From positions 2,664,583 through 2,728,582 of the forward strand of contig OW818689.1 in NCBI GenBank assembly GCA_942493325.1: a stretch of 64,000 nt of DNA, read 5' to 3'. Position numbers and translations under genes: made by a program. Below, piece after piece: positions 1,051 to 57,305 of the stretch. Position 1 is the first letter of the stretch. Every line of letters starts with the position of its first letter. The notes beneath the pieces were generated by a model. It had not been told where the DNA came from. It worked only from the letters and a program-made list of their open reading frames with translations, and searched no databases. The DNA comes from an uncultured Bacteroidales bacterium (GTDB lineage: Bacteria; Bacteroidota; Bacteroidia; Bacteroidales; Prolixibacteraceae).

Positions 1051-1052
1051 AG

Positions 1053-4084: not shown

Positions 4085-4106
4085 ATAGTTAGATATATCT
4101 AACTAT
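4085..4106. promoter_or_regulatory. Perfect 22-bp palindrome, candidate MarR operator
   Basis: ATAGTTAGATA|TATCTAACTAT lies 28 bp upstream of the marR start codon (4057, minus strand). Confidence 0.45.
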
Positions 4107-4128
4107 CAAACAGGGACGAAAGAGCGAC

Positions 4129-4168
4129 GGGGAGATGGGGAGATAGGGTTATGGGGTGATGGGGCGGG
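4129..4168 (+). repeat. G-tract word repeat (G-quadruplex-type motif), locus B
   Basis: GGGGAGATGGGGAGATAGGGTTATGGGGTGATGGGGCGGG has six runs of G3-4 separated by 1-5 nt. Confidence 0.6.
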
Positions 4169-4225
4169 CAATATTCCACAAACTGTTTTCCGTTCGCAAC
4201 CATAATATTCCAGGGTTGTATTTAT

Positions 4226-4346
4226 CTGGAGCAACACCTTTCATTGGAAGAATTCGTGTAATCTGTTATAATCCGTGTAATCATTTTAAGCAACACCTTT
4301 CAATGAAAGAATTCGTGAAATTCGCCCTAATTCGTAAAATTCGTAA
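4226..4346 (+). repeat. Two tandem copies of the M1 module (CTGGAGCAACACC + CTTTC-N3-GAAAG hairpin + 4x AATTCGT heptads)
   Basis: Copy 1a (4226-4282) is degenerate and copy 1b (4289-4346) is canonical. The same module occurs at 39172-39235 and 52190-52252. It ends 17 bp from the stop of the minus-strand deacetylase gene. Confidence 0.7.
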
Positions 4347-9156: not shown

Positions 9157-10398
9157 TTAAAGACTCATCAGCTGTGAGAATGTTCTGAAAACCATTCCCG
9201 ATTCAGTCATAACAGGTGTTGAGTAACTTCCCTCGCCTAATTCAAATATTCCCAGCAGTTGGTAAGGTAAACCAGCGCGAATCGCAAGGACTTTTCCTTC
9301 CTTTGTTATGCAGTAAAGTATTCCTCCAACACAAATCGGAGAACCAAATAGGGGTCCAGCCGGCCTTTCCTTCCAAAGCAATTCACCAGTGGTCAATTTT
9401 ACACATGCCACCACTCCGCTATCCATGAATAAATATAGCAATTCGCCCGCAACAATCGGCGTTGGCACATAAGGCGACAAGTTAACCGGCAAGGAGTAGC
9501 GTACTGCGGCTTTCGGTACAATTGCTTTTGGATTGAAATCAAATACCACGGCGTCTCCTTTGCGACATGCAACGATCATCCCATTTGAATAGATTGGGGA
9601 TGCAATAGCCCGGGCAGGAAATATTTCTTTCAGTTCCCACATAACTTGCCCGTTCTCCGGATTCACGCCGGTAAGTCCGTGTGCCTGGCTGGTAAAAATC
9701 AATTGTTCTGAATGATTCTCCGTTTTCACCAAAAGCGGTGTCGAAAAGGAATTTGCGATAGCAGATTCCCGTTCCAGTTCCCAGGCCGTTTTCCCTGTAA
9801 GTTTATTCACAGCAACCCACGAACTCTTTTGTGGACTTGAGTCTTCCTGCTCACGCGTAAACACAACATATTTATCGGTGAGCATAAGCGAGCTTCCTCC
9901 CCCGTGACGGCTCTCTATCCCTCCGAAATTGGCCTCCCAACGAAAAGTCCCATCATGTGCCAGAGCAGTCAAAGTTGTTTTTTCTTTGGAATACCAAATG
10001 AAATAAACTTGTGTTGCATCAACAGCAGGCGATGCCGTTGCAAGCTTATTGTCAATATGCATTTCCAAATCCGTTACTCCAAATTCTTTTTGCCAGAGAA
10101 TCTTTCCGTCCTGTCCGTCTATGGCAAAAACATACCCAATATCCTTTTTATCATCTCCACCGGTAGTAAAAATGGTATTTCCCCAAACAACCGGCGACGT
10201 ATTTCCTATCCCGGGCAGCGTTATTTTCCACCGATAGTCAGTATCCTTCCAGGTAACCGGAACATTCCCCGACAAGTCAACTCCCGTCCCGTCAGTTCCT
10301 CTAAACCTGGTCCATTGATTTGTCTGAGCCTTCGAATCCGTACAATAACTGATTAATATGAAACTTAGGAAAAATAGATAGTTGGTTGAATAATTCAT
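9157..10398 (-). CDS. PQQ-like (BamB-type) beta-propeller repeat protein, secreted
   Basis: 413 aa with a signal peptide. Blade motifs recur: AIDGQDGKILWQ, AVNKLTGKTAWE, GVNPENGQVMWE, CVKLTTGELLWK. Confidence 0.8.
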   Translation of the reverse strand: MNYSTNYLFFLSFILISYCTDSKAQTNQWTRFRGTDGTGVDLSGNVPVTWKDTDYRWKITLPGIGNTSPVVWGNTIFTTGGDDKKDIGYVFAIDGQDGKILWQKEFGVTDLEMHIDNKLATASPAVDATQVYFIWYSKEKTTLTALAHDGTFRWEANFGGIESRHGGGSSLMLTDKYVVFTREQEDSSPQKSSWVAVNKLTGKTAWELERESAIANSFSTPLLVKTENHSEQLIFTSQAHGLTGVNPENGQVMWELKEIFPARAIASPIYSNGMIVACRKGDAVVFDFNPKAIVPKAAVRYSLPVNLSPYVPTPIVAGELLYLFMDSGVVACVKLTTGELLWKERPAGPLFGSPICVGGILYCITKEGKVLAIRAGLPYQLLGIFELGEGSYSTPVMTESGMVFRTFSQLMSL

Positions 10399-10526: not shown

Positions 10527-10661
10527 TATAGATGTCAAACTATTGAGATATTCTTCCAAATTCGTAAAACCATTCTTTTTCATATCACCATTCCGGTCTT
10601 CCGGATCACTGCGTCTCGTTTCAGGGAGGCGCCTGAGTTTTTGAGGCCAGTTCGTAAGCCT

Positions 10662-12005: not shown

Positions 12006-12035
12006 AATATTCTCTACGTTAAATACATGTTTAAT

Positions 12036-13713
12036 TAGAGTCTGTCTGTAATAGATAAAATATATGAATATCAGGCACATATCTTAGGTTTATCCAAATC
12101 TTCTTTGTATCTTGTTATCGAATTAAAGATAGCTTTTATAATGAAAATATTTAACGACCTGGTGTTGAAATTTGAAAAATCTGATTGGGCCAAGAATCCC
12201 GAGTTTGGTGTGATCGACACTATTCTTGAACTTCATCCTGAAATTTACGGCATTTTCAAATTCGATATAGCTGGCAATGAAGAGGTTAACAATTTTGGAC
12301 GTGGTGATACACCCACTGTTGAACAGATTGTCAGGGCTGCGATTTATAAAGAGTTAAAAGGTTATGACTATCGGGAACTTGAATATGCACAAAGCGATTC
12401 ACGGATTTGTGCTACATTTATTAAGCTTGATGAGCGCAAACCATTTTGTTTTCAGACATTCCAGAAGTTCATTTCCAGAATAAGTGAAGATACCCTTCAC
12501 AAAGTATTGGTTGAGCTGATTAAAATTGCCATTGACGAAGGCTATGAAGATATAAGCAAAATCAGACAGGACAGCACAGTTGTCAAAAGCAATATTCATT
12601 ACCCGACCAATAATTCACTCGTTTGGGACTGTATTCATGAAAGCCACCGTCTGCTGAGCCACCTCAAAGAAGAGGTCGGTGTACTTTCGTTTATCGATTA
12701 TACCAAATCTGCCAAAACCACCTATTTCAAGATAAACGTCACCAAGTCAAAAGATAAGCAAGCCGATCTCTTTAATAAACAGTTAGTTACATTCACAAAG
12801 GCGATCAATCAGGTTTCCAATATTATAAAAAAAAAGTTCGACAGCCTCGGCCTTAAAGCATACATTTTTATCACAGAACTTGAAGAACTGCTGCCATTGA
12901 TGGAAAAGGTTTACAGCATGACTTATCGGAAACAGATTCAGGACGAGTCAGTACCGAACGACCAAAAATTGTTCTCGATATACGAACTACACGCTGACAT
13001 TATTGTCAAGGGTGGACGCGAAGTACAATTCGGTCACAAGGTAAATCTGGCCACAGGAAAAAGCAACCTGATCATTGATTGTGTTATACCTGCGGGGAAT
13101 CCAGCTGATATTACTTTATTCAACCCTACCATTGACAGGGTGATAGATAACTACGGGATAACTCCCAGAGATTCATCTGCTGATGGCGGATATGCCAGTC
13201 AGGGAAGCTTAGATCATTGCAAATCAAAAGGTATAGTAAATATTGTATTCAATAAAGTAACAAAAAGCCTTAAAAATGTTGCCACCAGCCTCAATATGGA
13301 AACACGTTTGAAGAAATGGCGAAGCGGTATTGAAGCCGCTATTTCAAACCTCAAACGGGGCTTCGACTTGAGGATTTGTAACTGGAAAGGATTTAAACAT
13401 TTCAAAGCAAAGGTGATGTGGAGTGTCCTGGGTTATAACTTCAGGGTACTCACTAACATGACATTGTCCCGAATAGCGGGACTTGCCTGAAAAGATTAAT
13501 TGAGAGATTAGCAATTTTTATCACAACACTTTAGTTTGAACGCCCTTAAGCTTGTTATTATGTTAGTTAGATTGGTTGAAAATACTGGAGCATATTTTTC
13601 AAAGAAAAACACGAAAAGCAAAAGTTTGAACGCAAATCATCATCAAATCGTCGGGAAAATAAAATGCGTAGGACCAAAAAATCAAAATAAGGTGACTTTA
13701 CAGACAGACTCTA
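12036..13713 (+). mobile_element. IS element copy 1 (1678 bp, intact; IS4/IS5-superfamily DDE type)
   Basis: Perfect 16-bp terminal inverted repeats: TAGAGTCTGTCTGTAA (12036-12051) and TTACAGACAGACTCTA (13698-13713). It carries a single 449-461 aa transposase ORF. Confidence 0.85.
12141..13490 (+). CDS. DDE transposase (IS4/IS5 superfamily; exact family unresolved)
   Basis: ATG at 12141 (MKIFNDL). Catalytic-region patterns are RQDSTVVKSNIHYPTNNSLVWD, SSADGGYASQ and RSGIEAAISNLKRGFDL (the R..IE....LK signature). Confidence 0.85.
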   Translation: MKIFNDLVLKFEKSDWAKNPEFGVIDTILELHPEIYGIFKFDIAGNEEVNNFGRGDTPTVEQIVRAAIYKELKGYDYRELEYAQSDSRICATFIKLDERKPFCFQTFQKFISRISEDTLHKVLVELIKIAIDEGYEDISKIRQDSTVVKSNIHYPTNNSLVWDCIHESHRLLSHLKEEVGVLSFIDYTKSAKTTYFKINVTKSKDKQADLFNKQLVTFTKAINQVSNIIKKKFDSLGLKAYIFITELEELLPLMEKVYSMTYRKQIQDESVPNDQKLFSIYELHADIIVKGGREVQFGHKVNLATGKSNLIIDCVIPAGNPADITLFNPTIDRVIDNYGITPRDSSADGGYASQGSLDHCKSKGIVNIVFNKVTKSLKNVATSLNMETRLKKWRSGIEAAISNLKRGFDLRICNWKGFKHFKAKVMWSVLGYNFRVLTNMTLSRIAGLA

Positions 13714-13715
13714 AA

Positions 13716-15395
13716 TAGAGTCTGTCTGTAATAGATAAAATATATGAATATCAGGCACATATCTTAGGTTTATCCAAATCTTCTTTGTATCTTGTTATCG
13801 AATTAAAGATAGCTTTTATAATGAAAATATTTAACGACCTGGTGTTGAAATTTGAAAAATCTGATTGGGCCAAGAATCCCGAGTTTGGTGTGATCGACAC
13901 TATTCTTGAACTTCATCCTGAAATTTACGGCATTTTCAAATTCGATATAGCTGGCAATGAAGAGGTTAACAATTTTGGACGTGGTGATACACCCACTGTT
14001 GAACAGATTGTCAGGGCTGCGATTTATAAAGAGTTAAAAGGTTATGACTATCGGGAACTTGAATATGCACAAAGCGATTCACGGATTTGTGCTACATTTA
14101 TTAAGCTTGATGAGCGCAAACCATTTTGTTTTCAGACATTCCAGAAGTTCATTTCCAGAATAAGTGAAGATACCCTTCACAAAGTATTGGTTGAGCTGAT
14201 TAAAATTGCCATTGACGAAGGCTATGAAGATATAAGCAAAATCAGACAGGACAGCACAGTTGTCAAAAGCAATATTCATTACCCGACCAATAATTCACTC
14301 GTTTGGGACTGTATTCATGAAAGCCACCGTCTGCTGAGCCACCTCAAAGAAGAGGTCGGTGTACTTTCGTTTATCGATTATACCAAATCTGCCAAAACCA
14401 CCTATTTCAAGATAAACGTCACCAAGTCAAAAGATAAGCAAGCCGATCTCTTTAATAAACAGTTAGTTACATTCACAAAGGCGATCAATCAGGTTTCCAA
14501 TATTATAAAAAAAGTTCGACAGCCTCGGCCTTAAAGCATACATTTTTATCACAGAACTTGAAGAACTGCTGCCATTGATGGAAAAGGTTTACAGCATGAC
14601 TTATCGGAAACAGATTCAGGACGAGTCAGTACCGAACGACCAAAAATTGTTCTCGATATACGAACTACACGCTGACATTATTGTCAAGGGTGGACGCGAA
14701 GTACAATTCGGTCACAAGGTAAATCTGGCCACAGGAAAAAGCAACCTGATCATTGATTGTGTTATACCTGCGGGGAATCCAGCTGATATTACTTTATTCA
14801 ACCCTACCATTGACAGGGTGATAGATAACTACGGGATAACTCCCAGAGATTCATCTGCTGATGGCGGATATGCCAGTCAGGGAAGCTTAGATCATTGCAA
14901 ATCAAAAGGTATAGTAAATATTGTATTCAATAAAGTAACAAAAAGCCTTAAAAATGTTGCCACCAGCCTCAATATGGAAACACGTTTGAAGAAATGGCGA
15001 AGCGGTATTGAAGCCGCTATTTCAAACCTCAAACGGGGCTTCGACTTGAGGATTTGTAACTGGAAAGGATTTAAACATTTCAAAGCAAAGGTGATGTGGA
15101 GTGTCCTGGGTTATAACTTCAGGGTACTCACTAACATGACATTGTCCCGAATAGCGGGACTTGCCTGAAAAGATTAATTGAGAGATTAGCAATTTTTATC
15201 ACAACACTTTAGTTTGAACGCCCTTAAGCTTGTTATTATGTTAGTTAGATTGATTGGTTGAAAATACTGGAGCATATTTTTCAAAGAAAAACACGAAAAG
15301 CAAAAGTTTGAACGCAAATCATCATCAAATCGTCGGGAAAATAAAATGCGTAGGACCAAAAAATCAAAATAAGGTGACTTTACAGACAGACTCTA
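13716..15395 (+). mobile_element. IS element copy 2 (1680 bp), head-to-tail with copy 1
   Basis: It has the same TIRs (13716-13731 and 15380-15395). In every segment compared by eye it is identical to copy 1 except for A9->A7 in the transposase ORF and a 4-bp GATT duplication near 15250. Confidence 0.85.
13821..15168 (+). pseudogene. Frameshifted transposase of IS copy 2
   Basis: The poly-A run at 14507-14513 has 7 A, against 9 A at 12827-12835 in copy 1. This splits the ORF into 13785..14534 and 14575..15168. Confidence 0.8.
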
Positions 15396-15567
15396 ATTAA
15401 ATGATTTAAATAAATGCAGCATATAAAAGTGAATATTTATGAGCGGGGTCGGTGTGGCATTCAACCGCGGATTCTCGTATCGCCGTTCAGTACTGGCGGA
15501 CAGGTGCGCTCTCCGAAATCCGCTCCGCAACATGCACCAGCCATTATAGGCAGTGCTGACCCGTTCT

Positions 15568-16897: not shown

Positions 16898-17125
16898 ATG
16901 AAACATTTGACATTAAATATACCTGATAGTCTGAATCTCAACGAAAGAGAAACCAAAAGATTCCTTGCAGCTAAAATGTATGAATCAGGGAAACTTACGT
17001 TGGGACAAGCTGCTGAATTAGCAGGACTTTCAAAAATGGCCTTTTCTGAGATATTGGCAGATTTTAATGTTTCATTAATTAACTATCCTCCATCAGATAT
17101 CGCAAGAGATGCAGCAATGTTCTGA
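16898..17125 (+). CDS. UPF0175 family antitoxin-like protein
   Basis: 75 aa. LAAKMYESGKLTLGQAAELAGLSKMAFSEILADFNVSLINY matches the UPF0175 pattern. It overlaps the next ORF by 17 nt, a TA-type arrangement. Confidence 0.8.
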   Translation: MKHLTLNIPDSLNLNERETKRFLAAKMYESGKLTLGQAAELAGLSKMAFSEILADFNVSLINYPPSDIARDAAMF

Positions 17126-17668: not shown

Positions 17669-19036
17669 TTATTCTGTAATCCCTTTGAATTTAATTTGCT
17701 GGGGTAATTTATTATCCATTGCAGCCAGTGCCGCAACCTGACCCGCGGTTTCACCCATCGCTACTGCATTTCCGGTAACCCGGTAGCTGGCGTGGGCAAA
17801 AAAATCACCGCTGATACATCTTCCGGCCATCATAAGGCCATTGACATCTTTGGCAATAAGCGAACGCAATGGAATGTCGTAAGGTTTTGCTCTCATGCCA
17901 TGACTGCCGTAACCACCTCCTGATTTTTTTTCCAGTGAATGCACGTCAACTGCAAATGTTGCACGGCATACAGCGTCATCAAACCGTGCCCCTTTGATTA
18001 AGTCCTCACCAGTCACTGTATAAATCCCATGAATCCGGCGGCCCTCGCGAATGCCAATTTGCGAGCCGGTAACCGCGATCCGGGCATTGGTCCAAACCCC
18101 TCCCAAAGACCGCAGTCCATTGACAATCTGGTTAACCTCACGGCGTGCTTCAATAGTGGCTTTCGAAATTTGGGCAGCATCAATGGCAGAAACTCCATAT
18201 TGATGATTGGCCATCATGGCAATCATTCCGGGGCGGACGCCAAAGAAAGTAGGCATAGTATAACTGGCATCGGTACCTCCGCGCTTAATTTCAGCATGGA
18301 GTTTTCGTTTCGAATCCTCGGATGTTTGTCCCCTGACACCCATTATTCCTTCAGCAACCAATGCTTTTTCGTCGAGACCGACCAGGATAGCCATCAACGA
18401 CATGGGCTGAGTTTTCCCCGTTTCAGGATGACCATAATCAAAGCCACATCCCGCCTGGGCCGCCAGATCGCCGTTTCCTGTTGCATCAATAAATACTTTG
18501 GCTTTCCAGGCTTCGCGACCAGAAAAACTTTCGGTTACGATATGCTCCAGCCTGTTGCCTGCGCCTTTGTAAGCAGCCGTAACCCTGGTGTGCAACCGGA
18601 TTTCAACTCCGGCTTCGAGGCACATCTGGTCAAGGATAAATTTCATCAGTTCACAATCATAAACTTTGGCCGAATACTGGGCATCGCTTTTTTCAAGTCG
18701 CTGAACCAGCTCCTTCATGATACCTGGCTTGTTTTGATAGTCGATGAGGTTATTCAGCAAGCCGGCCGTCCATACTCCACCAAGGCATCCGTGATATTCG
18801 ATCAGCGTGGTTTTTGCTCCCCCGCGTGCAGAGGCAATAGCCGCGGCAATTCCGGCAGGACCACCACCACAAACAATCACATCGGATTCATTTACGACAG
18901 GCAATAATCGCGATGGTTCTTTAAATCCTGAAGCTTTTTCAGCAAAGGATCCGGCACCTATAGCCACCCCACAGAATGGTGTGACAGTACCCAGCAGTGC
19001 CCCGGCTTTTAAAAAATTACGTCTGTTGGTAGTCAT
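17669..19036 (-). CDS. FAD-dependent oxidoreductase with Tat signal
   Basis: 455 aa. Twin-arginine signal MTTNRRNFLKAGALLG. Dinucleotide fold DVIVCGGGPAGIAAAIASARGG. Confidence 0.8.
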   Translation of the reverse strand: MTTNRRNFLKAGALLGTVTPFCGVAIGAGSFAEKASGFKEPSRLLPVVNESDVIVCGGGPAGIAAAIASARGGAKTTLIEYHGCLGGVWTAGLLNNLIDYQNKPGIMKELVQRLEKSDAQYSAKVYDCELMKFILDQMCLEAGVEIRLHTRVTAAYKGAGNRLEHIVTESFSGREAWKAKVFIDATGNGDLAAQAGCGFDYGHPETGKTQPMSLMAILVGLDEKALVAEGIMGVRGQTSEDSKRKLHAEIKRGGTDASYTMPTFFGVRPGMIAMMANHQYGVSAIDAAQISKATIEARREVNQIVNGLRSLGGVWTNARIAVTGSQIGIREGRRIHGIYTVTGEDLIKGARFDDAVCRATFAVDVHSLEKKSGGGYGSHGMRAKPYDIPLRSLIAKDVNGLMMAGRCISGDFFAHASYRVTGNAVAMGETAGQVAALAAMDNKLPQQIKFKGITE

Positions 19037-19128
19037 TGAGGATCATTTTGCACAAATATATTAAATAATACAGGCGATAATTAATTGGAGCTGTCAGGAT
19101 TTAAAAGAAAATCACAGGCATATCAATC

Positions 19129-19163
19129 CCACAAATCATAAATCACAAATCATAAATCACAAA
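19129..19163. repeat. 14-bp tandem repeat x2.5
   Basis: CACAAATCATAAAT CACAAATCATAAAT CACAAAT, in the divergent intergenic region. Confidence 0.75.
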
Positions 19164-19289
19164 TTTTTGTCTTTTCCGGAATATTCTCCTGCAAAATATT
19201 GTAACTTTATTCGCTGACACTACGTGGCTTTTGAGGCTGTTTAGATACTATTTTTTAGTTGACTTTTTAACTTTTTAATAACTAACACA

Positions 19290-34724: not shown

Positions 34725-34888
34725 ATACCTTGTTTATCGTCGCTAAAGTAATAAAATTCAAATTTGCATCCGAGAAATATTTCAGACAGCAACATACACC
34801 TACCCATGCACACTCCTGCTGTTGTATAAAGTCAATGCTGGCTCCGCTATTAAACACAAAAGCCCCGGAATTTCTTCCGGAGCTTTCG

Positions 34889-34962
34889 CGGTCTGGACGG
34901 GACTCGAACCCGCGACCCCATGCGTGACAGGCATGTATTCTAACCAACTGAACTACCAAACC
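34889..34962 (-). tRNA. tRNA-Asp: tRNA-Asp (GUC), copy 1
   Basis: Reverse complement: GGTTTGG TA GTTC AGTTGGTTA GAAT A CATGC CTGTCAC GCATG GGGTC GCGGG TTCGAGT CCCGT CCAGACC G. Confidence 0.9.
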
Positions 34963-34988
34963 AAAATTATCTATTAATCGAATGTGGG

Positions 34989-35062
34989 CGGTCTGGACGG
35001 GACTCGAACCCGCGACCCCATGCGTGACAGGCATGTATTCTAACCAACTGAACTACCAAACC
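34989..35062 (-). tRNA. tRNA-Asp: tRNA-Asp (GUC), copy 2
   Basis: Identical to copy 1 and exactly 100 bp upstream of it. Confidence 0.9.
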
Positions 35063-35084
35063 AATAAATAAAAAACAAAAATGG

Positions 35085-35189
35085 CGGTCTGGACGGGACT
35101 CGAACCCGCGACCCCATGCGTGACAGGCATGTATTCTAACCAACTGAACAGAAAAATCTTACAGAAAAATCAAGAACTTTACCAAAGCC
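35085..35189 (-). pseudogene. Disrupted tRNA-Asp copy 3
   Basis: The 3' 65 nt (35085-35149) are identical to the intact copies. The 5' part reads GGCTTTGGTAAAGTTC (35174-35189) and is separated by a ~24-nt insert, TTGATTTTTCTGTAAGATTTTTCT. Acceptor pairing is broken. Confidence 0.6.
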
Positions 35190-37440: not shown

Positions 37441-38874
37441 ATGTTAAAAAATTACATTTCCAGGTTGATAATCGATGAAATAAAATTCGAACCCACTGAT
37501 GATCAGCTAGAAATGGCAGAGAAAATATCTGAATACATTACCAGCGATCAGCCAAACATGCTGTTTCTGCTAAAAGGATATGCCGGAACCGGGAAAACAA
37601 CAGCGCTCAGCGCTCTTGTTAAGGTACTGGGGGCATTAAAAAGGAAGACAATTATGCTGGCCCCCACCGGAAGAGCTGCAAAAGTTCTGTCGAGGTATGC
37701 CGGCAAACCCGCAACAACAATTCATAAAAAAATATACCGTCAGGAATCCATGACAGATGGATCCTCCAGGTTTGCTCTTGACCGAAACCTGCACAAAAAT
37801 ACCATTTTCATTATTGACGAAGCCTCGATGATTTCGAACAGCTTACAGGAAAACAACATTTTCGGTACCGGATACCTGTTGGCAGATCTGATCGAATACG
37901 TGATGTCGGGCGAGAACTGCAGGCTTATCATTGCCGGAGATACTGCCCAGCTTCCCCCGGTAGGCTTGAGCATCAGTCCGGCACTTGAAGAAGAGGAACT
38001 GAAATTTTTTAATCTGGATGTTGTAAAATGCGAACTGAAACAGGTAGTGAGGCAGGCGTTGGAATCGGGAATTCTTGAAAACGCGACAACAATCAGGAAT
38101 TTGTTATCCACTGAACAACCTGAAGGATACTGGAAAATTAAAACCTCGGGGTTTAATGACATCCGAAGAATAGGTGGTGCTGATCTGATTGAAGAACTAT
38201 CGAATTGTATCCACAAATACGGTATTGATGAAACAATTGTGATTACGCGGTCAAATAAAAGAGCCAATAAATTTAATGAGGGCATCCGACGATCAGTGCT
38301 GTACCGGGAAGAGCAGATTTCAACGGGTGACCTGGTAATGAATGTGAAAAATAATTACCATTGGGCAAAACAGACTGATGAGCTTGATTTTATCGCCAAC
38401 GGGGATATCGCTGAAGTGGTTAAAATACGTAAGTTCGAGGAAAAATACGGGTTTCATTTTGTGAATGTGACCTTGCGGCTTATCGATTATAAAGATGTTG
38501 AAATTGATTGTAAAATAATCCTGGATACCTTAACCATCGAAGCTCCGTCGTTAACCCAGGCCGACCAGAAGAGGATGTTTGAAGAAATAGCACAGGATTA
38601 TCCTGAAATCCATAACAGACGGAAGTTGTGGGAACTTATACGTGAAAATGAGTATTTTAATGCCTTACAGGTAAAATTTTCATATGCTTTGACCTGCCAT
38701 AAATCGCAAGGTGGTCAGTGGAAAGCCGTATTTCTTGATCACGGTTACCTCACTGAAGAGATGATTGACCGCGAGTACCTGCGTTGGGCTTATACCGCAT
38801 TCACCCGGCCCACCGAGCGACTCTACCTGGTTAATTTCAATAAGGAGTTTTTTGATGACGATGAACAGGATTAA
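37441..38874 (+). CDS. RecD-like (SF1B) ATP-dependent DNA helicase
   Basis: 477 aa. Walker A GYAGTGKTT, Walker B IFIIDEASM, IIAGDTAQLPPV, and C-terminal ALTCHKSQGGQW. Confidence 0.85.
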   Translation: MLKNYISRLIIDEIKFEPTDDQLEMAEKISEYITSDQPNMLFLLKGYAGTGKTTALSALVKVLGALKRKTIMLAPTGRAAKVLSRYAGKPATTIHKKIYRQESMTDGSSRFALDRNLHKNTIFIIDEASMISNSLQENNIFGTGYLLADLIEYVMSGENCRLIIAGDTAQLPPVGLSISPALEEEELKFFNLDVVKCELKQVVRQALESGILENATTIRNLLSTEQPEGYWKIKTSGFNDIRRIGGADLIEELSNCIHKYGIDETIVITRSNKRANKFNEGIRRSVLYREEQISTGDLVMNVKNNYHWAKQTDELDFIANGDIAEVVKIRKFEEKYGFHFVNVTLRLIDYKDVEIDCKIILDTLTIEAPSLTQADQKRMFEEIAQDYPEIHNRRKLWELIRENEYFNALQVKFSYALTCHKSQGGQWKAVFLDHGYLTEEMIDREYLRWAYTAFTRPTERLYLVNFNKEFFDDDEQD

Positions 38875-39236
38875 TGGGGCAGGGAGCATGGGGCAGGGAG
38901 CATGGGGCATTGATGAAAAAGAGAAAATGAGACAATGTGCCAATGTGCTAATGTGACGATGAGAAGATGCGATCTTGCGAAAAGGCGATAGGGCGAAAAT
39001 GCAGATCAGAGCATTGTAGAGACGCACGGCCGTGCGTCTGATGACCAATCAAACGGGACGAAGGGGGAATGGGAGAAAAAGAAGTGACCGGGTGACTTTT
39101 TAAGGAAAGAAAAGAAGCCCGTTAGTTTAAACTCTATTTTGAAATGCAGTCACCCGGTCACTTCTTTGAATCTGGAAGCAACACCTATATTTTGAAAGAA
39201 TTCGTGCAATTCGTCTTAATTCGTAAAATTCGTAAA
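38875..39236 (+). repeat. Composite word-repeat element, locus C (most complete copy; fills a convergent intergenic region end to end)
   Basis: Order of modules: G-tract words 38875-38910; GAGAAAATGAGACAATGTGCCAATGTG...GCGAAAAGGCGATAGGGCGAAAATG 38921-39001; 20-bp palindrome 39020-39039; GGGGGAATGGGAGAAAAA 39063-39080; 17-bp IR pair 39081-39097 / 39148-39164; M1 module 39172-39235. Confidence 0.75.
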
Positions 39237-40169
39237 TTAAATATCAAACCTGTCACCATCATTCGCCGGAAAAGTGTTCTGAAAAACAGTTCTTGCTTCA
39301 TCAACGAGCGGTTTTACACTTTTATAACGGCTCGAAAAATGACCGATGATCAGCTTTTTAACCCCGGCCTCGCGTGCAAGCTCTGCCGCCTGTAATGATG
39401 TGGTATGACAGGTTTTCAATGCCAGTAACTTTAATTCATGGGCAAAGGTTGCCTCATGATAAAGCAGATCGACATTTTCAAGTACAGGGATAATCTGTTT
39501 TCGGTAAACCGTATCAGTGCAGAAGGCATACGCACGGATCGGATCAGGTGGAAAGGTAAGCTCCTGATTCGGAATAATCTTACCTTCCGGTGTCAGGTAA
39601 TCAGCCCCTGATTTGATAAGTAACCTTTCTTTGATGGGAATTTTTAAAAAATTAACTACCTCCCCGCGAAGATGAAGCTCATGAAGTTTCTCCCTGAAGA
39701 TAAATCCGCAGCAGGGAATTCGGTGTTTCAGCGGAAAAGATTCTACACTAAGCTTTGAATCCTCGTAGATAACAGCCCGGCCACGAAAACTTAATGGATG
39801 ATAAATTACCCGGAAATCATCAAATTCATTCATGAACTTCATCAGATGATCCATCATGATCTTCAGTTCGGAGTGGGCATAAATGTGCAGCTCCCCTTTC
39901 TTCCCACCCAGAGCAATTGTCGAAATTAACCCGGGCAATCCGAAAATATGATCCCCATGCAGGTGAGAGATAAAGATATGGTTGATTTTACCTGCTTTAA
40001 ATCCGAATTTACGCAGCTGGATTTGCGTCCCTTCACCGCAGTCAATCAGAAACAACCGATCGTTAAGATTTACAACCTGGGAGGTTGGAAACCTGTCTGA
40101 GGTGGGAAGAGCAGAACTACTGCCTAAAATAGTCACCGAAAAAGGGAGCATTACAAATCTTTTTTTCAA
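39237..40169 (-). CDS. rnz: Ribonuclease Z (MBL fold)
   Basis: 310 aa. IDCGEGTQ and the metallo-beta-lactamase motif ISHLHGDH. Confidence 0.88.
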   Translation of the reverse strand: MKKRFVMLPFSVTILGSSSALPTSDRFPTSQVVNLNDRLFLIDCGEGTQIQLRKFGFKAGKINHIFISHLHGDHIFGLPGLISTIALGGKKGELHIYAHSELKIMMDHLMKFMNEFDDFRVIYHPLSFRGRAVIYEDSKLSVESFPLKHRIPCCGFIFREKLHELHLRGEVVNFLKIPIKERLLIKSGADYLTPEGKIIPNQELTFPPDPIRAYAFCTDTVYRKQIIPVLENVDLLYHEATFAHELKLLALKTCHTTSLQAAELAREAGVKKLIIGHFSSRYKSVKPLVDEARTVFQNTFPANDGDRFDI

Positions 40170-40447
40170 ACGTACATGAAAAACGGCGATTCAACAAAAC
40201 AAACAAAATAAAAAAATAGTGCTGCCCGCGAACAAATTATCGTCTTAATTTGTATTTAGACTAAATACACATAAGCTGCACGCGACATTACATGGTGGCA
40301 GCGAATTATTATTTCATCGGGAAGAGATCAGATATCCTGTTGTGCTATCTGGTGCAGAAAAAATATTTAACCATGATATTGGAAAATAATAAGTTAGTAT
40401 GATGATTTACTTTAAACGCTTTAATTGAATTATTAATTTGAATTGAA

Positions 40448-45437: not shown

Positions 45438-46202
45438 ATGAAAAAAATTCTTTTAGGACTATGCCTTGTTGGCGCGTTTACTGCAAATGCTCAGAATCAG
45501 AAACCCGAGGATGCAAAAATGAAACCGGAGATGACCGAATTCTGGGATCCTGAAGTAAAGGTGGTAACACCGGCAGAAAGTAATCTGAATGCCCCTTCAG
45601 ATGCGATTGTTCTTTTTGACGGGACCAGTGAGACTTTGCTCCAAAACTGGAAAAACGGAAAAGGCGAAGCCCCGGGATGGAATGTCGCTGATAATTGTGT
45701 TACCGTGACTAAAGGTACCGGTACGATACAGACGAAGATGGATTTTGAAGATTATCAGTTACATATCGAATGGCGTTCGCCCGCCGAAGTAAATCCTGAG
45801 AGTAAAAGTCAGGGACGCGGAAACTCCGGGATTTTTATGCAGGGAAAATACGAATTACAGGTTCTTGACAACTATGATAACCGCACCTACCGCAATGGTC
45901 AGGCAGGTTCGTTTTACAAACAACATGCTCCGCTTGTGAACGTCTGTAAAAAACCCGGTGAATGGCAGACCTATGATGTGATCTATACTGCCCCAAGGTT
46001 TAAGGCCGACAGCACCTTATTTTCTCCGGCACGTGCCACTGTTCTTCACAATGGTGTTCTTGTACAAAACAATGTTCATTTATCGGGACCTACAGAATAC
46101 ATCGGAATTCCTAAATACAAATTTCATGGCCCGGGCCCTATTGTTCTCCAGGATCATGGCAATCCGGTCAGTTTCAGAAATATCTGGATCAGGAAATTAT
46201 AA
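45438..46202 (+). CDS. DUF1080 (3-keto-disaccharide hydrolase-like) secreted protein
   Basis: 254 aa with a signal peptide. The DUF1080 pattern is present: W..G.......W.V.D..., NSGIF, LQDHGNPVSFRNIWIRKL. Confidence 0.85.
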   Translation: MKKILLGLCLVGAFTANAQNQKPEDAKMKPEMTEFWDPEVKVVTPAESNLNAPSDAIVLFDGTSETLLQNWKNGKGEAPGWNVADNCVTVTKGTGTIQTKMDFEDYQLHIEWRSPAEVNPESKSQGRGNSGIFMQGKYELQVLDNYDNRTYRNGQAGSFYKQHAPLVNVCKKPGEWQTYDVIYTAPRFKADSTLFSPARATVLHNGVLVQNNVHLSGPTEYIGIPKYKFHGPGPIVLQDHGNPVSFRNIWIRKL

Positions 46203-46207
46203 CATGA

Positions 46208-46247
46208 TTTGTTGTTGGGACAGGGCGTGCCCTGTCCCAACAACAAA
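46208..46247. terminator. Very strong hairpin between convergent genes (19-bp arms)
   Basis: TTTGTTGTTGGGACAGGGC GT GCCCTGTCCCAACAACAAA. There is no clean T-run, so it may be a bidirectional terminator or an mRNA-stabilising hairpin. Confidence 0.6.
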
Positions 46248-46250
46248 TCA

Positions 46251-47147
46251 TCATGATGAATGAATTTTTGTCAGCCGGTCGCACAGGTCTTTCAACCCTT
46301 CAGGGGTATCGCCGCCAGGTTGTTCAATGGTTGTCCAGTTATTGTAGCTGATATCATCGAGGGCCTTCATTACCAGAGGCCAGTTTACATCACCTTCGAG
46401 CAGTTTTACCCCAAAACCGGCACCTTTGCCCTTGGTATCAGCAATCTTACGACTGTATTCCTTAATGTGAACCTTCGCTATACGGGGCCCAAGAATTTTT
46501 ATCCATTGTTCGGGCCATCCGAATGCGAGGATATTGCCGCAATCAAAATAGGAAGCCACCATACTGCTTTTAAACTGATCAACGTAATAAGCAGCCTCAA
46601 CGGGACTCAGCAGGAAATTATTCCATACATTTTCGATCGCTATTTTAACATTCAATTGTTCGGCAAGAGGAATCATTTTTTTGATCTCTTCGGTTGTGCG
46701 TTTCCAGCAATCGTCATAACTAACCGCTTCGCTTACGCGGCCCGGAACGAGCAGTACCGTATCGGCACCATAAGCTTTGGCATCTTCGAGACCCAGCTTA
46801 AGCGCTTCAATACCCTGGTCGCGTACCGAAGCATCCGGATCAGATAAAAGTAATTTCCAATGCAATGCACAGCAGACACTCGGAATGATTAAACCGGTGG
46901 CATCACGCGCCTTTAAAACTTCATTCCTGTCGAGGTGACTCATTACTTCCACGCCATCAAAACCTGCCTTTTTTGCGGCCTCAAATTTTTCGGCAATAGT
47001 CTTCCCGACACCAATACTGCCCCACATGATCCCTTTTTTCAGGCTGCGGCCTGCCGGTTGCCGGACAGTGGAAAAACCGTTAATGGAAGCTGCTGAAATC
47101 GCGGCGGTTGCCAAAATCGTATTCTTTGTAAATTGTCGTCTGTTCAT
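46251..47147 (-). CDS. Sugar phosphate isomerase/epimerase (xylose-isomerase-like TIM barrel) with Tat signal
   Basis: 298 aa. MNRRQFTKNTILATAAISAASING, FDGVE and IAIENV patterns. Confidence 0.85.
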   Translation of the reverse strand: MNRRQFTKNTILATAAISAASINGFSTVRQPAGRSLKKGIMWGSIGVGKTIAEKFEAAKKAGFDGVEVMSHLDRNEVLKARDATGLIIPSVCCALHWKLLLSDPDASVRDQGIEALKLGLEDAKAYGADTVLLVPGRVSEAVSYDDCWKRTTEEIKKMIPLAEQLNVKIAIENVWNNFLLSPVEAAYYVDQFKSSMVASYFDCGNILAFGWPEQWIKILGPRIAKVHIKEYSRKIADTKGKGAGFGVKLLEGDVNWPLVMKALDDISYNNWTTIEQPGGDTPEGLKDLCDRLTKIHSS

Positions 47148-48676: not shown

Positions 48677-48926
48677 TTCTTTGTGGTCATTGCATGCCAC
48701 CTGGAAGGATAAAAAAAAGAAATAAGATTTTGTTGATAATATGCAAATTGGCAGATTTTCTCATCCTCTCATTTTCTCGTCTTCTCCCCTCGCCCTTTCT
48801 CCCAGTCACCTTGTTAGGATTTTGAATCTTGCGGCGCATTGAACGGATGAATTTCAATCGATTATTCTTTGCGGTCATTTGCGTGCAACCTGGAAGGATT
48901 TAAAAAATGGAAATAAGGTTTTGTTT
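48677..48926. repeat. Two R2 repeat copies (48677-48734, 48866-48926) flanking reverse-oriented word modules (48741-48810)
   Basis: R2 copies: TTCTTTGTGGTCATTGCATGCCACCTGGAAGGATAAAAAAAAGAAATAAGATTTTGTT and TTCTTTGCGGTCATTTGCGTGCAACCTGGAAGGATTTAAAAAATGGAAATAAGGTTTTGTT. The reverse complement of the middle reads GGTGACTGGGAGAAAGGGCGAGGGGAGAAGACGAGAAAATGAGAGGATGAGAAAATCTGCCAATTTGC. Confidence 0.7.
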
Positions 48927-48929
48927 GCC

Positions 48930-49128
48930 TGGACAAATCTTAGGGCTATTCTGATCTGAATCTTTTTGCATGGACTAATCATAGGGGTATGCCGGTCTGA
49001 ATCTTTTTGCATGGACAAATCTTAGGGCTATTCCGACCTGAAGCTTTTTGTTTGGATTCATCTTAGGGGTAAGCCGGTCTGAATCTTTTTGTTTGGACTC
49101 ATCTTAGGATTTAGGATTTAAGATTTGG
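48930..49128 (+). repeat. 41-bp tandem array, 4.8 units, with an 82-bp higher-order period
   Basis: Units start at 48930, 48971, 49012, 49053 and 49094 (the last is partial). Units 1 and 3 resemble each other (TGGACAAATCTTAGGGCTATTC.GA.CTGAA.CTTTTTG..), as do units 2 and 4 (TGGA.T.ATC.TAGGGGTA.GCCGGTCTGAATCTTTTTG..). Confidence 0.85.
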
Positions 49129-49340: not shown

Positions 49341-50078
49341 ATGAAAAGCTACCTGGAACCCTTGAAAGCATCAGTTTTGACTCATATGGAATTCGGTCAG
49401 CTGATGAAAAGACTCCTGAATGATCTTTCAACAATCGATCAAACATTACTGACTGACCAGCCTTACACGGACTATTTCCGCGAACTCACTGACAAGTTGA
49501 CTATTTATGAGAAAGGACTTGCCCAGGTACGCAAAAATGAAGAAACTGAAAAAATCGCCATTGCGGATACTGTTCGCGATAAAGCAATATCTTCGTTCGC
49601 TAAAGCCCTTAAGTTATATGCCATTTCTGACAAACCGGAAGAGATAGAAGCGAGCAGAATACTTAGGATTTTATTCAGCACTTATAAAAACCTGGCCAGA
49701 TTAAGTTATGAAGCCGAGTCGATTGGCCTTGACAAGCTGGTGAATGATCTCCAAAGTGCACATTATGCTGAACAGATCGCCATATTGAATCTTGAAAGAA
49801 ATGTTGACCGGATGAAAGTAACCAATGAGGATTTTAAAACAATATTTAGCAGTCGTATGGAAATTAACGCCACGACAGATTCCTATGACGTGAAGACCAT
49901 CCGTGCCGAAATGCTTCAAATTTACAATGATTACATCGCGTATATTCTGGCAATGAGTAAAGCTCATATTACAACTCCGTTCAACTTAAAATTGTCATTA
50001 CTGAATACTGCCCGTAAATATTATTCCGATCTGCTTGCCCACAGGAATTCGGTTAAAGCGGTTGCTTCGAATCCATAG
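49341..50078 (+). CDS. Hypothetical helical protein
   Basis: 245 aa with no signal peptide and no motif I can name with confidence. Confidence 0.5.
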   Translation: MKSYLEPLKASVLTHMEFGQLMKRLLNDLSTIDQTLLTDQPYTDYFRELTDKLTIYEKGLAQVRKNEETEKIAIADTVRDKAISSFAKALKLYAISDKPEEIEASRILRILFSTYKNLARLSYEAESIGLDKLVNDLQSAHYAEQIAILNLERNVDRMKVTNEDFKTIFSSRMEINATTDSYDVKTIRAEMLQIYNDYIAYILAMSKAHITTPFNLKLSLLNTARKYYSDLLAHRNSVKAVASNP

Positions 50079-51848: not shown

Positions 51849-52254
51849 GCGGTGTGGCGATGGGGCGACATGGCAACAAGGCGATGGGGCGAAGATGAGA
51901 AAATGAGAAGGTGAAAAAATAATCGTTCCAGCTTGGTAATTTGCTAATTGGAGGAGAATTGGAAAAAGGGCGAGCACGTGAAGGTGCAGTCAAGGTGAGA
52001 AATTGAGTGACTGGGTGACTTTCAAAATAACGGATCAAACGCCTGTTGACTCTGAGTGACCGGGTGACTTCTAAAATAACGATCAAATGCTTTTTGATTT
52101 TGCTTAATCTATAAATGCAGTCACCCGGTCACTAGCCATGAGCTGACTTTGCCCAATTTTGTATTGCAGTCACCCGGTCACTTTTGAAGCTGGGAGCAAC
52201 ACCTTTCTATGAAAGAATTCGTGAAATTCGTCTTAATTCGTGAAATTCGTAACA
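51849..52254 (+). repeat. Composite word-repeat element, locus E (fills a convergent intergenic region end to end)
   Basis: GGCGATGGGGCGA words 51849-51892; GATGAGAAAATGAGAAGGTGAAAAAA 51893-51920; two forward (52006-20, 52055-69) and two reverse (52119-33, 52168-82) copies of AGTGAC(C/T)GGGTGACT; M1 module 52190-52252, ending 2 bp from the stop at 52255. Confidence 0.75.
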
Positions 52255-55826: not shown

Positions 55827-55998
55827 ATCTATAAAAATTAGAGTATTAACTGGTAGGTACTGGTAGGGGCAAATGTATAATAATTTGATCGTAAAGAAAG
55901 GAGGTAAAAAATGTTTAAGAACAGATTTCTGCTGGTGGAAGATTCGATTTGTTAACACAGTGCGTTTTTCTATGAAATTTAATAAAGGCATCTGGCTG

Positions 55999-56250
55999 CT
56001 GGCTGTTGGCGACTGGCGGCTAGCCCGCAGTCCATATTAGACTGATTTCATTTTATATTTAATTTTTTCACCTTTTTCTGTAGGATTTATTCACTATTAC
56101 AACTGCACATATCTTTCGGGATAGTACCAATCAGTTGCAAACGCAACAATTAATCGTAAGACGCCAGTTGCAAGCCGCAAGTTGCAAGCTGCCAGCTGCA
56201 AGTTGCCAGCCGCCAGTTGCAAGCAGCCAGTTGCAAGCAGCCAGCCGCTT
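55999..56250. repeat. GCCAG-word repeats: imperfect 23-bp inverted arms (55999-56021 / 56208-56230) and a 14-bp-period tandem tract (56163-56250)
   Basis: Left arm CTGGCTGTTGGCGACTGGCGGCT and right arm AGCCGCCAGTTGCAAGCAGCCAG are 20/23 complementary. GTTGCAAG recurs at 56167, 56181, 56216 and 56230, with GCTGCAAG at 56195. Confidence 0.7.
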
Positions 56251-56297
56251 TTGAATTAATATTCTCAATGTCAATTATTGCCAATGTTAAAAGAACA

Positions 56298-57305
56298 TTA
56301 TAATGATCTTCTGACAATCAACCTCGAAGGATTGCGAAATTTTATCTTCCGGTGATTTAAGATCATATCGGCCAAGACCTTCCCCATCAGGACAAAATCG
56401 GTTGATATGGTGGTGATTCCACCCGCGACAACCTCTTTCAGCATTGTATCGTTAAACGAAACCAGGCCGACATCTTCACCCAGTTTAAGATTCATGTCCG
56501 CCGCATTTTTAACAATCCTGACCAGGTTTCGATCGGATACAACCAGATAGGCCTCCCCTTTTTGGACATTCCGCTTGTCGACCGACCGGATAATTTCGGA
56601 TTCCAGATCATTCTCCCTGCAGAATCTGTTAAAACCCATCACCCGTTCTTCGGGTTCCTTTCCCCCGGGGAAAACCATGATCAATTTCTGATACTTGCAA
56701 AAGAGTTCTCTTCCGGCCATCATCCCATCATAAACATCCTGTTCAAAATCCTGGTAAATGACAGGGAAATCCATCAGATCGGGTTTAAGCCGGTCGAGAA
56801 TATAAACCTTATCAGCGGGTAATTGCCTGATCAGCTCTATCGAATTGGCAAATGTGGCCGGCATAATAACATAAGCACTGTATTTGCCTGCAGAACTTTC
56901 GATCAGTTCTTTGTAAACATTGAAATTGAAATGGTGGAAAAAAATATCAACGTTAATCCGGTTGTCTAACTGACCGAGGAAAGCCGCATATAAATCCTCC
57001 TTAAAAACATTCAATTCGTCGAAAAGGAGAAAAATCTGTTTGGCATAATTAAGGTCGGTCCTTTCGATGTAATATCCTTTCCCGGGAACGGAAACAACCA
57101 CCCCCAGGGCTCTCAATTCGTTAAAAGCAAGCATAACAGTATCGCGCGACAGGGAGAACGCCCCGCAAATCTGGTTGATTGAGGCAATTTTATCGCCTTT
57201 GTGCAGGATACCCTGTTCGATAGCCATACAGACAGAATTGATAATCTGTCTGTATTTTGGGATTCCCGCCGCTTCGTCAATATTAAAGATATTTGATAGA
57301 TTCAC
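56298..57305 (-). CDS. GntR-type HTH regulator fused to a LacI/PBP1-type sugar-binding domain
   Basis: 335 aa with a GTG start. N-terminal PKYRQIINSVCMAIEQGILHKGDKIASINQICGAFSLSRDTVMLAFNELRALGVVVSVPGKGYYI is a GntR wHTH. The remainder is a periplasmic-binding-protein-like fold. Confidence 0.8.
   Translation of the reverse strand: MNLSNIFNIDEAAGIPKYRQIINSVCMAIEQGILHKGDKIASINQICGAFSLSRDTVMLAFNELRALGVVVSVPGKGYYIERTDLNYAKQIFLLFDELNVFKEDLYAAFLGQLDNRINVDIFFHHFNFNVYKELIESSAGKYSAYVIMPATFANSIELIRQLPADKVYILDRLKPDLMDFPVIYQDFEQDVYDGMMAGRELFCKYQKLIMVFPGGKEPEERVMGFNRFCRENDLESEIIRSVDKRNVQKGEAYLVVSDRNLVRIVKNAADMNLKLGEDVGLVSFNDTMLKEVVAGGITTISTDFVLMGKVLADMILNHRKIKFRNPSRLIVRRSL

Follow-up and report, generated by a model that had tools for sequence, protein, structure and literature searches.

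Short-period intergenic repeats that adjoin stop codons have been reported for decades from cyanobacteria, xanthomonads, Beggiatoaceae and a few Bacteroidetes, and we know of none with an established function. Repetitive extragenic palindromic (REP) sequences, together with the bacterial interspersed mosaic elements (BIMEs) that they form, are built on an imperfect palindrome of 20-40 nt with a GTAG-type head, which occurs in inverted doublets of alternating Y and Z units with fixed linkers, and termination and protection of mRNA 3' ends have been proposed as their roles. Here we analyzed a 64-kb stretch of DNA (the window, at its full length) from a Prolixibacteraceae genome close to Mariniphaga, in which the 362-bp convergent gap between the stop codons of a helicase gene and an RNase Z gene (38875-39236) is taken up by short stuttered words. 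The element in this gap, referred to as copy C, is very probably a member of a lineage-specific family of mosaic intergenic repeats. The family is composed of two kinds of module, namely degenerate tandem arrays (a period-7 G-rich head, a period-8 array of 'G-N-G-A-N-N-N-N' units and a period-9 'ACGAATT' array) and REP-like hairpins (M7, H1 and a palindrome).

The closest functional and positional analogue of this family is the class of G-rich heptamer repeats of Xanthomonas and Nostoc, GGGAATC and GGGGA(C/T)T (Rehm et al. 2015), which lie at most 50 bp past stop codons on the coding strand, vary between close species and are of unknown function (PMC4692102). Because G-rich repeats after stop codons were described for those heptamers, the positional rule itself is not novel. 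Also comparable are the cyanobacterial short tandemly repeated repetitive (STRR) heptamers and the 'long simple sequence repeats' (LSSRs), whose units measure 5-11 nt (Mrazek 2007, cited in PMC4679880 and PMC4692102), as well as the TAACTGA direct repeats, which are mostly found just upstream of start codons (MacGregor 2015; PMC4679880). New in the present family are a degenerate unit with a constrained G-N-G-A core, an order of units that is conserved between dispersed copies, a second array at the opposite stop codon and the linkage of arrays to hairpins. No earlier description in Prolixibacteraceae was found in a literature search.

Anatomy of copy C

Copy C and the two genes that border it comprise the following features.

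37441-38874, plus strand: gene of a RecD-like superfamily 1 (SF1) helicase
38874-38909, plus strand: G-rich head, ATGGGGCAGGGAGC x2.6, 100%; taken as a period-7/14 array, ATGGGGC/AGGGAGC x2.6 (38875-38909), beginning 0-1 nt past the helicase stop
38921-39000, plus strand: octamer array of ten units in a single register, GAGAAAAT ... GCGAAAAT, profile G-N-G-A-N-A-A-T
38921: the word GAGAAAATGAGA
38933-38955: the word CAATGTGC, x2.9
38959: the word ATGAGAAGATGCGATC
38977-39001: the word GCGAAAAGGCGATAGGGCGAAAATG
39020-39039: perfect 20-bp palindrome AGACGCACGGCCGTGCGTCT, single copy among the sequences compared
39060-39082, plus strand: short G-rich array GAAGGGGGAATGGGAGAAAAAGA, 96-100% match to 869-891 (reverse complement)
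39063: the word GGGGGAATGGGAGAAAA
39078-39167: M7 hairpin, two 20-nt arms with 100% complementarity and a 50-nt loop
39177-39236, plus strand: module M8, consisting of AGCAACACC, a degenerate small hairpin and AATTCGTNN x4 (period 9)
39237-40169, minus strand: RNase Z gene

The original prediction, made from the letters of the window, had described this gap as an ordered series of separate words; all of its modules were found where it had placed them, and its gene calls (P-type ATPase, helicase, GuaA and RNase Z) were correct. What it had missed is that the reported words are one continuous period-8 array in a single register, whose octamers read, in order, GAGAAAAT GAGACAAT GTGCCAAT GTGCTAAT GTGACGAT GAGAAGAT GCGATCTT GCGAAAAG GCGATAGG GCGAAAAT. 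The antisense strand of this array is C-rich and G-poor, and the head in front of it contains a canonical G-quadruplex (G4) motif (38876-38907). The inverted repeat pair, which had been given as 17 nt long, exists but actually measures 20 nt (39078-39097 and 39148-39167), and each M7 arm is made of two octamer units (GTGACCGG GTGACTTT). In M8, four AATTCGT units follow AGCAACACC; on the minus strand, M8 is an ACGAATT array that adjoins the RNase Z stop.

Dispersed copies in the window

The modules were predicted to recur at 841-1050 (reverse complement), 4129-4346, 48741-48810 (reverse complement) and 51849-52254. This recurrence is real, with shared blocks of 20-100 nt that are 87-100% identical, and alignment showed the likeness between loci to be true sequence similarity, the alternative having been a coincidence of low complexity. 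The copies, named A to E by position, have the following parts.

552-745, minus strand: H1 hairpin module (CCCCGGGTAAG...CGGAATCGCGCCACCCGGGG), downstream of A and A2
845-900, minus strand: copy A2, a second, shorter G-array in the orientation of copy A
947-1052, minus strand: copy A, G-rich head and ten octamers, beginning 0-3 nt past the P-type ATPase stop
4129-4168, plus strand: head of copy B, GGGGAGAT x4.5, with a canonical G4 motif
4230-4346, plus strand: two tandem M8 units of copy B, the second ending 16 nt from the deacetylase stop (4363)
48741-48810, minus strand: copy D, a G-array core in a divergent gap, G-rich on the minus strand, absent in relative L067
51849-51920, plus strand: G-array of copy E, nine octamers directly after the guaA stop
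52006-52183: two nested M7 hairpins of copy E, with arms at 52006-52021, 52055-52070, 52119-52134 and 52168-52183
52195-52252, plus strand: M8 of copy E, ending 2 nt from the metallophosphoesterase stop (52255)

Copies A and C match unit for unit with 0-2 differences each, and their alignment (947-1020 with 38923-38996) is 88% identical over 74 nt. Further matches join 845-878 to 38921-38954 (97%, 34 nt) and 872-891 to 39060-39079 (100%, 20 nt). The right arm of M7 and M8 form one unit common to C and E (39136-39235 and 52156-52252, 88% over 100 nt), and 4289-4346 of copy B is 93% identical to 52195-52252 of copy E over 58 nt. Moreover, copies C and E are colinear over their whole length, both extending from stop codon to stop codon of a convergent gap in the order G-array, M7 hairpin and period-9 ACGAATT array. 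Copy B consists of the G-rich head and the two M8 units only, without M7. All G-arrays share an ordered core, namely a G-rich tract, then GAGAAAATGAGA, then GACAATGTGCCAATGTG. Array D, together with 54 nt of unique sequence, is bracketed by a 61-nt direct repeat (48677-48734 and 48865-48925, 85%), which suggests insertion by duplication or template switching.

Tandem Repeats Finder (TRF) and a custom detector recovered periods of 7, 8 and 9 nt with 2.6-10 units at no fewer than five loci, all of them intergenic. With periods of 6-10 nt, eight arrays were detected in the window, against 0.2 in composition-matched shuffles, and none lies inside a long open reading frame (ORF). A separate heptamer array (CACAAAT/CATAAAT, 5 units, zero G) lies at 19130-19164 in the divergent gap 19037-19289, and its word family is unrelated to the G-arrays.

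Constraint and register of the octamer unit

Ten arrays from three genomes yielded 73 octamer units, representing 46 distinct sequences. Among the distinct octamers, G is held at position 1 in 41/46 and at position 3 in 44/46, and A at position 4 in 34/46, the remaining five positions having an entropy of 1.5-1.9 bits; C is found almost only at positions 2 and 5. Neighboring units resemble each other more than they would if randomly ordered (p about 0.03 for each of two arrays), a signature of local duplication by slippage. In addition, the three arrays that follow the guaA stop in the window, L065 and L067 have an identical octamer register when counted from the stop codon, with "G.GA" kept and the rest drifting. 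The arrays were also considered as a source of stop codons in all three frames, which we rejected since the first out-of-frame stops are 37-98 nt away.

Distribution and turnover in close relatives

The relatives compared here are annotated as Mariniphaga sp. or Prolixibacteraceae. Exact modules were found only in close relatives with 79-94% DNA identity, and they are absent from 663 kb of relatives in which the helicase is at most 92% identical at the amino-acid level. A scan of GTDB species representatives for AGCAACACCT(N8-11)AGAATTCGT gave five hits, about the chance expectation, and JGI metagenomes yielded no match to a 30-nt block common to copies A and C. The close relatives carry the following variants.

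L028, 92% DNA identity: helicase-RNase Z gap with two direct G-arrays around an H1 hairpin
L065, 94% DNA identity: both gap-E arrays, alignable for 40-45 nt from each stop, with a different interior
L067, 91.5% DNA identity: 168-bp gap behind the guaA stop that holds a family G-array but neither M7 nor M8
L062-64, 79% DNA identity: exact M7 and H1 cores, a GCCAAT array and an orthologous copy-B array
L061, 84% DNA identity: ATPase stop followed by 178 bp free of arrays, where the window has about 740 bp

The element had been proposed to be genome-specific and orientation-constrained. An orientation-constrained family of 3' flanks is what we see, but because the same modules occur in L028, L065, L067 and L062-64, the family is lineage-specific rather than genome-specific. 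The arrays of L028 combine family words with new GAGACGCA units that still obey G-N-G-A. The helicase-RNase Z gap of this relative cannot be aligned with that of the window, while its flanks and other intergenic gaps align at 90-93%; its center is 75% identical to the H1 module of the window (552-745), the core of which is also present in L062-64. The copy-B array still has its original place and direction in L062 (79% DNA identity), amid altered surroundings, and an M7-like hairpin with a U-run follows the deacetylase stop in that genome. An indel at window 40268-40425 relative to L028, considered as a model insertion, turned out to be unrelated to the arrays.

Several neighboring features were noted in the same comparisons. 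In L065, two direct copies of a REP-like hairpin (CTGCCTGCCCCGAC-GTGTCGGGG / CTGCCTGCCCCGAGAATCGGGG), absent from the window, lie inside a ACGAATTAC array after a phosphatase stop (800-880). Near copy B, a palindrome, TAGTTAGATA-N2-TCTAACTA, is kept just upstream of a MarR-family gene in three genomes (4088-4107 in the window, 139-160 in L061 and 5476-5497 in L062) and is probably a MarR operator. A DUF6261 gene (49341-50078) stands between guaA and a GFO/IDH oxidoreductase gene. L006-L009 lack it at this place, and in L067 it is broken up into two small ORFs; this divergent gap is therefore a hotspot of gain and loss. Upstream of guaA, a 41-nt tandem repeat is present in 4.5 copies (48924-49128) and as a single unit in L067; at the matching position, L010 (21215-21425) and L027 (20160-20300) have tandem repeats of the same 41-nt period with a different sequence.

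Arrays of other words in more distant relatives

Across relatives, the helicase-RNase Z gap varies from 12 to 497 bp, and many of these gaps are filled by stutter arrays of unrelated words. In more distant Prolixibacteraceae-like genomes, short-period arrays likewise adjoin the same stop codons, and most of them are rich in G and poor in C on the sense strand. A frequent layout is an array, a variable center, the reverse complement of the array and a T-run, as in CCACATAGGCACATAGAACACATAAG ... CTATTGTGTCCTATGTGACTATGTGG, so that in many relatives inverted stutter arrays are the arms of one long hairpin that makes up the gap. These arms are kept across nine relatives with the center swapped. 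Covariation was considered as proof of the hairpin and rejected, since a compensatory change was seen in only 2 of 16 pairs, which amounts to conservation.

At other loci, L026 has (GGTTAAT)n after the guaA stop and a TTGAAATAG-type array after the convergent gene. GGTTACG-type arrays follow several stops in L050, a distant Bacteroidia relative whose helicase is 47% identical. This genome is very rich in heptamer arrays (GGTTACG, GATTGAA and CCGCTAA), several of which adjoin stops with far more G than C on the sense strand; examples are 7631-7676, 9764-9793, 10549-10597, 16955-16992 and 18004-18053.

The window itself has a block with inverted arrays of another word family, which lies between the stop of a GntR/LacI-type regulator gene and galK (55928-56304). 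Two inverted heptamer arrays of GCNRCTG words (55992-56025 and 56163-56248) flank a 140-nt center in this block, which folds into a long hairpin (z = -4); GCNRCTG words also form the arms of the helicase gap in L023. The galK-upstream block (about 370 nt) is absent in L067, where 16 nt are present instead, and is bracketed by a 14-15-nt imperfect direct repeat, TGTTCTTTTAACATT / TGTTCTTAAACATT, TGTTCTT(TT/A)AACATT, of which L067 has one copy.

Comparison with described repeat classes

Like the Xanthomonas and Nostoc heptamers, the arrays described here are short, G-rich, non-coding tandem units (7 nt there and 7-8 nt here), of which inverted pairs can form stem-loops and the heads of copies B and C meet the G4 rule of four G-tracts. 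The position is also that of the repeats of Rehm et al. (2015), with A, C and E lying 0-3 nt past stops in sense orientation. Unlike those heptamers, the units here are degenerate, only G1, G3 and A4 being fixed, and most copies lack a canonical G4 motif. They also differ in that the order of units is conserved between dispersed loci, in that hairpin modules and a second array, of period 9 and not G-rich, are physically linked to them, and in belonging to the phylum Bacteroidota.

With the STRR, LSSR and TAACTGA repeats, the family shares intergenic tandem units of 7-8 nt, lineage-specific words and a sporadic distribution that includes a few Bacteroidetes; at the same sites, relatives have shorter, repeat-free gaps, and slippage is the presumed origin. 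As in the LSSR/STRR class, units within 5-11 nt are arranged head to tail in at least three copies in non-coding DNA at many loci. In that class, however, the units are (near-)identical copies of a single word, whereas 46 distinct sequences were counted among our 73 units. Compared with the near-perfect single-word copies of STRR, LSSR and TAACTGA repeats, the arrays here are degenerate and mostly located at stop codons, and they move in ordered 75-125-nt blocks accompanied by hairpins.

The architecture had been judged to be none of the known clustered regularly interspaced short palindromic repeat (CRISPR), MITE (miniature inverted-repeat transposable element) or REP/BIME types, and the element indeed differs from CRISPR, classical MITEs and E. 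coli-type REP/BIME. A CRISPR array, with repeats of 23-50 nt and unique spacers of comparable length, is excluded by units that are 7-9 nt long, contiguous and spacerless. No MITE-type terminal inverted repeats were found, the left end (G-array) and the right end (M8) being unrelated, and no short target-site duplication is seen between the filled window and the empty L061 ATPase site; only the long direct repeats of 61 nt and 14-15 nt occur elsewhere. The family resembles REP, BIME and REPIN (REP doublets forming hairpins) elements in being an extragenic mosaic built from a small number of modules and concentrated in convergent gaps and 3' flanks, with M7 as inverted doublets, and module combinations differ among loci A-E, L028, L062, L065 and L067 as in a REP/BIME mosaic. 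In contrast to REP/BIME, it has no GTAG-headed palindromic unit (the M7 arms, AGTGACCGGGTGACTT, are inverted doublets without a GTAG head) and no Y/Z alternation, and is mostly tandem array; a REP-associated tyrosine (Y1) transposase was not seen within the 64-kb window. Taken together, the element is real and non-random, and is best read as a BIME-like mosaic within a known but unexplained kind of bacterial repeat.

Position, strand asymmetry and hairpins

The G-rich end had been reported to start 0-2 nt past the stops of the ATPase (1053), helicase (38874) and guaA (51848) genes in their sense orientation; we observed the same orientation, at a distance of 0-3 nt. Read on the opposite strand, the AATTCGT units of M8 are an array adjoining the stop of a convergent or upstream gene at three loci (4363, 39237 and 52255). 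Of the 40 gene 3' ends of the window, 6 carry a stop-adjoining array. The idea that 3' flanks are purine-rich as a rule was rejected, as the other 34 flanks are ordinary, several having classical terminators. Over all loci, 12 of 52 intergenic arrays adjoin a stop, against about 6.5 expected, and the sense strands of these 12 contain 223 G and 76 C, with G exceeding C in nine.

Of all 60-nt windows in the 64 kb, those with the strongest G/C skew are the arrays, which reach G32/C5 per 60 nt. The antisense strand of copy C has C40/G13 over 107 nt; antisense strands of the arrays carry a UC dinucleotide every 8 nt, and the array part of the minus-strand fold is without stable structure. The G4 rule (at least four tracts of three or more G, loops of 1-7 nt) holds for the heads of copies B and C and for one L028 array, and not for A, D and E. 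With two canonical motifs in the window against 0.45 in shuffles (shuffle maximum 2), which is not clearly above chance, G-quadruplex formation was rejected as the defining property.

In copy C, the perfect 20-bp stem of M7 is flanked by an A-tract and a U-tract, UUCUUUUUCUCC following on the minus (RNase Z) strand, and fold z-scores of -4.3 and -3.4 bear on the M7 hairpin. In a search with Rfam 15, only tRNAs reached the gathering score of a family in the window, and a permissive search placed only two sub-threshold hairpin look-alikes on M7. The tRNA matches include three tandem copies on the minus strand (34888-35160) with a spacing of about 100 nt, the third truncated (Rfam model positions 10-63). 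Minimum free energy (MFE) folds hinted that the G-array and M8 could be complementary ends closing the gap; this was rejected, as the duplex energies are no better than those of shuffles (p 0.09-0.8). Elsewhere in the window, a perfect 23-nt inverted repeat with a 2-nt loop (46204-46251) fills a 48-bp convergent gap between genes at 45438-46202 (plus) and 46251-47147 (minus), and is a compact bidirectional terminator, contrasting with the composite gaps of 362-406 bp.

Origin and possible function

The explanation that we favor, with a probability of roughly 0.4, combines the mosaic family and its origin with hairpin terminators and Rho-type arrays. Sequence patterns suggest that arrays grow in place by slipped-strand or unequal duplication, and that recombination or template switching then copies whole arrays, with their neighboring hairpins, from gap to gap. 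Turnover is fast in gap interiors, apparently within about 6-8% DNA divergence, and slower in the stop-proximal arrays. M7, with its A-tract and U-tract, would be a bidirectional intrinsic terminator of the gap. The mRNA of the preceding gene would carry the G-rich, C-poor strand, a poor substrate for Rho, and a transcript in the opposite direction would present an unstructured, C>G stretch of 50-120 nt in which UC recurs invariantly every 8 nt, the composition of a Rho-loading site. The arrays may serve as a backstop, halting convergent or read-through transcription before it reaches the neighboring gene or promoter. The Rho step, which composition and position suggest, is doubtful.

All five G-arrays of the window are C-rich for the transcript that would be expected to be unwanted. 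The C-rich strand of A, C and E is antisense into the ATPase, helicase and guaA genes, respectively; that of B, including its head, corresponds to minus-strand transcripts that leave the deacetylase gene and read through toward the MarR promoter, a layout kept in L062; and that of D corresponds to plus-strand transcription toward the DUF6261 gene and guaA. A Rho utilization (rut) site is a stretch of 60-90 nt with a C>G bias and weak structure, and Rho has YC-binding clefts, each subunit contacting 5 nt with linkers of 4-5 nt (PMC12360218). The array antisense strands are like rut sites in composition only, being 50-120 nt of C>G, weakly structured sequence with regular UC, placed where read-through or antisense transcription should stop, whereas natural rut sites have neither tandem repeats nor the fixed period that is 8 nt here.

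Several observations weigh against this explanation. Coding regions of the genome are also G>C on the sense strand, so that the orientation may reflect a general transcription-strand bias rather than a specific function. The enrichment of arrays at stops across relatives is modest, and since many loci are orthologous and not independent, the enrichment test is only moderately strong. Intrinsic terminators have a GC-rich stem, a short loop and a 3' U-tract, and M7, with its loop of 50 nt, is missed by a standard terminator scan, which covers loops of 3-8 nt. The 8-nt array period is shorter than the 9-10 nt per subunit of E. coli Rho. Arrays occur at only 6 of the 40 genes, and L061, L025, L021 and L024 lack arrays at the same sites; any array function would therefore be dispensable. 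In addition, copy A lies in a tandem gap, where there is no convergent gene to stop, and the assignment of an unwanted transcript to each of the five arrays appears flexible.

It is also possible, though unlikely, that the arrays are neutral or selfish simple-sequence repeats that grow by slippage where selection allows, from a stop codon to the next functional signal, are reshuffled through recombination and lack any function themselves, their polarity being the G>C sense bias that coding regions share. The slippage signature inside arrays, their fast replacement and loss at orthologous sites, the wholly different words that species have at the same stop codon and the small share of 3' ends with arrays would fit such repeats, as would the analogous Xanthomonas/Nostoc and TAACTGA repeats, for which no function was found (PMC4692102, PMC4679880). 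Slippage, however, makes units uniform throughout, yet in three genomes the arrays hold G1, G3 and A4 only, the five other positions drifting. The register from the stop codon is also kept in three genomes, copy B has held its position and direction within changed surroundings at 79% DNA identity, and the array skew is far above that of coding DNA. An improbable alternative places the function in the sense-strand RNA, where GNGA octamers or G4-capable heads in the 3' untranslated region (UTR) would form G-quadruplexes or a platform for an oligomeric RNA-binding protein, thereby protecting the mRNA 3' end or modulating its decay. Ring-shaped RNA-binding proteins that read spaced triplets exist, for example TRAP and HutP. 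A constrained GNGA sub-motif with fixed spacing, the sense orientation of A, C and E within 0-3 nt of stops and the canonical G4 motifs at the B and C heads and in one L028 array are compatible with such an RNA element. So are the Xanthomonas/Nostoc G-rich heptamers, which prefer four units at most 50 bp past stops on the coding strand and form G4s in vitro as DNA oligonucleotides (PMC4692102). This reading is opposed by the low count of G4 motifs relative to shuffles, by copies B and D, which are outside the 3' UTR of any gene in the G-rich sense, and by relatives that use AT-rich words without GNGA at the same sites; moreover, no candidate protein was identified.

Of the three roles that the original prediction had proposed, classical transposition has the least support, because there are no terminal inverted repeats and no short target-site duplications, and gap interiors are replaced wholesale. 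A non-autonomous element (MITE, REPIN or the palindrome-associated transposable element, PATE, type), mobilized in trans by a transposase from another part of the genome, with the G-array-to-M8 composite as the mobile unit, would account for the colinear composites C and E at unrelated loci, the dispersal of modules at 87-97% identity, the REPIN-like inverted doublet of M7 and the direct repeats that bracket two array-bearing blocks (61 nt at D and 14-15 nt at the galK-upstream block absent in L067). The ends of the composite are, however, unrelated sequences rather than inverted repeats, their complementarity being no better than in shuffles, and the filled window and the empty L061 ATPase site show no short target-site duplication. 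Composites also extend exactly from stop to stop, unlike a cut-and-paste insertion, and the modules recombine independently, as in B without M7, the L065 arrays with other hairpins and the L028 arrays with H1. A DDE enzyme of the IS5/IS1182 type is the window's only transposase, and this insertion sequence (IS) was rejected as the mobilizer as its ends are unrelated. The IS is present as two tandem copies of about 1.68 kb (12032-15399; DDE_Tnp_1 and DUF772) with ends TTACAGACAGACTCTAATTAAA, and the transposase of the second copy is split into two ORFs. We regard transposition as very improbable.

Within the explanation that combines hairpin terminators with Rho-type arrays, a more specific proposal, which we consider rather unlikely, is that the G-N-G-A arrays would be a portable, direction-specific transcription insulator. 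Set immediately next to a stop codon, they would be inert in the mRNA, and the opposite RNA would offer at least six evenly spaced UC dinucleotides, a platform matched to the hexameric Rho ring, at which convergent or read-through transcription would be stopped. As selection would then act on the periodic sub-motif only, stutter could lengthen or shorten the arrays and copy them from gap to gap without restraint.

Implications

Annotation of such gaps calls for caution because they are hypervariable and assemble poorly. To the cases described earlier, the family adds a position-specific constraint (G1, G3 and A4) with a register fixed from the stop codon, a strand rule that is valid at all five window copies, and natural variants in close relatives, in which arrays are kept, interiors are swapped or sites are empty. 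The resulting hypothesis is concrete and concerns a cultivable group, namely that the arrays, paired with hairpin terminators, may be Rho entry sites specific to one direction. Should the Rho hypothesis be wrong, the family would still be a clear example of how slippage and copy-paste build BIME-like mosaics in Bacteroidota.

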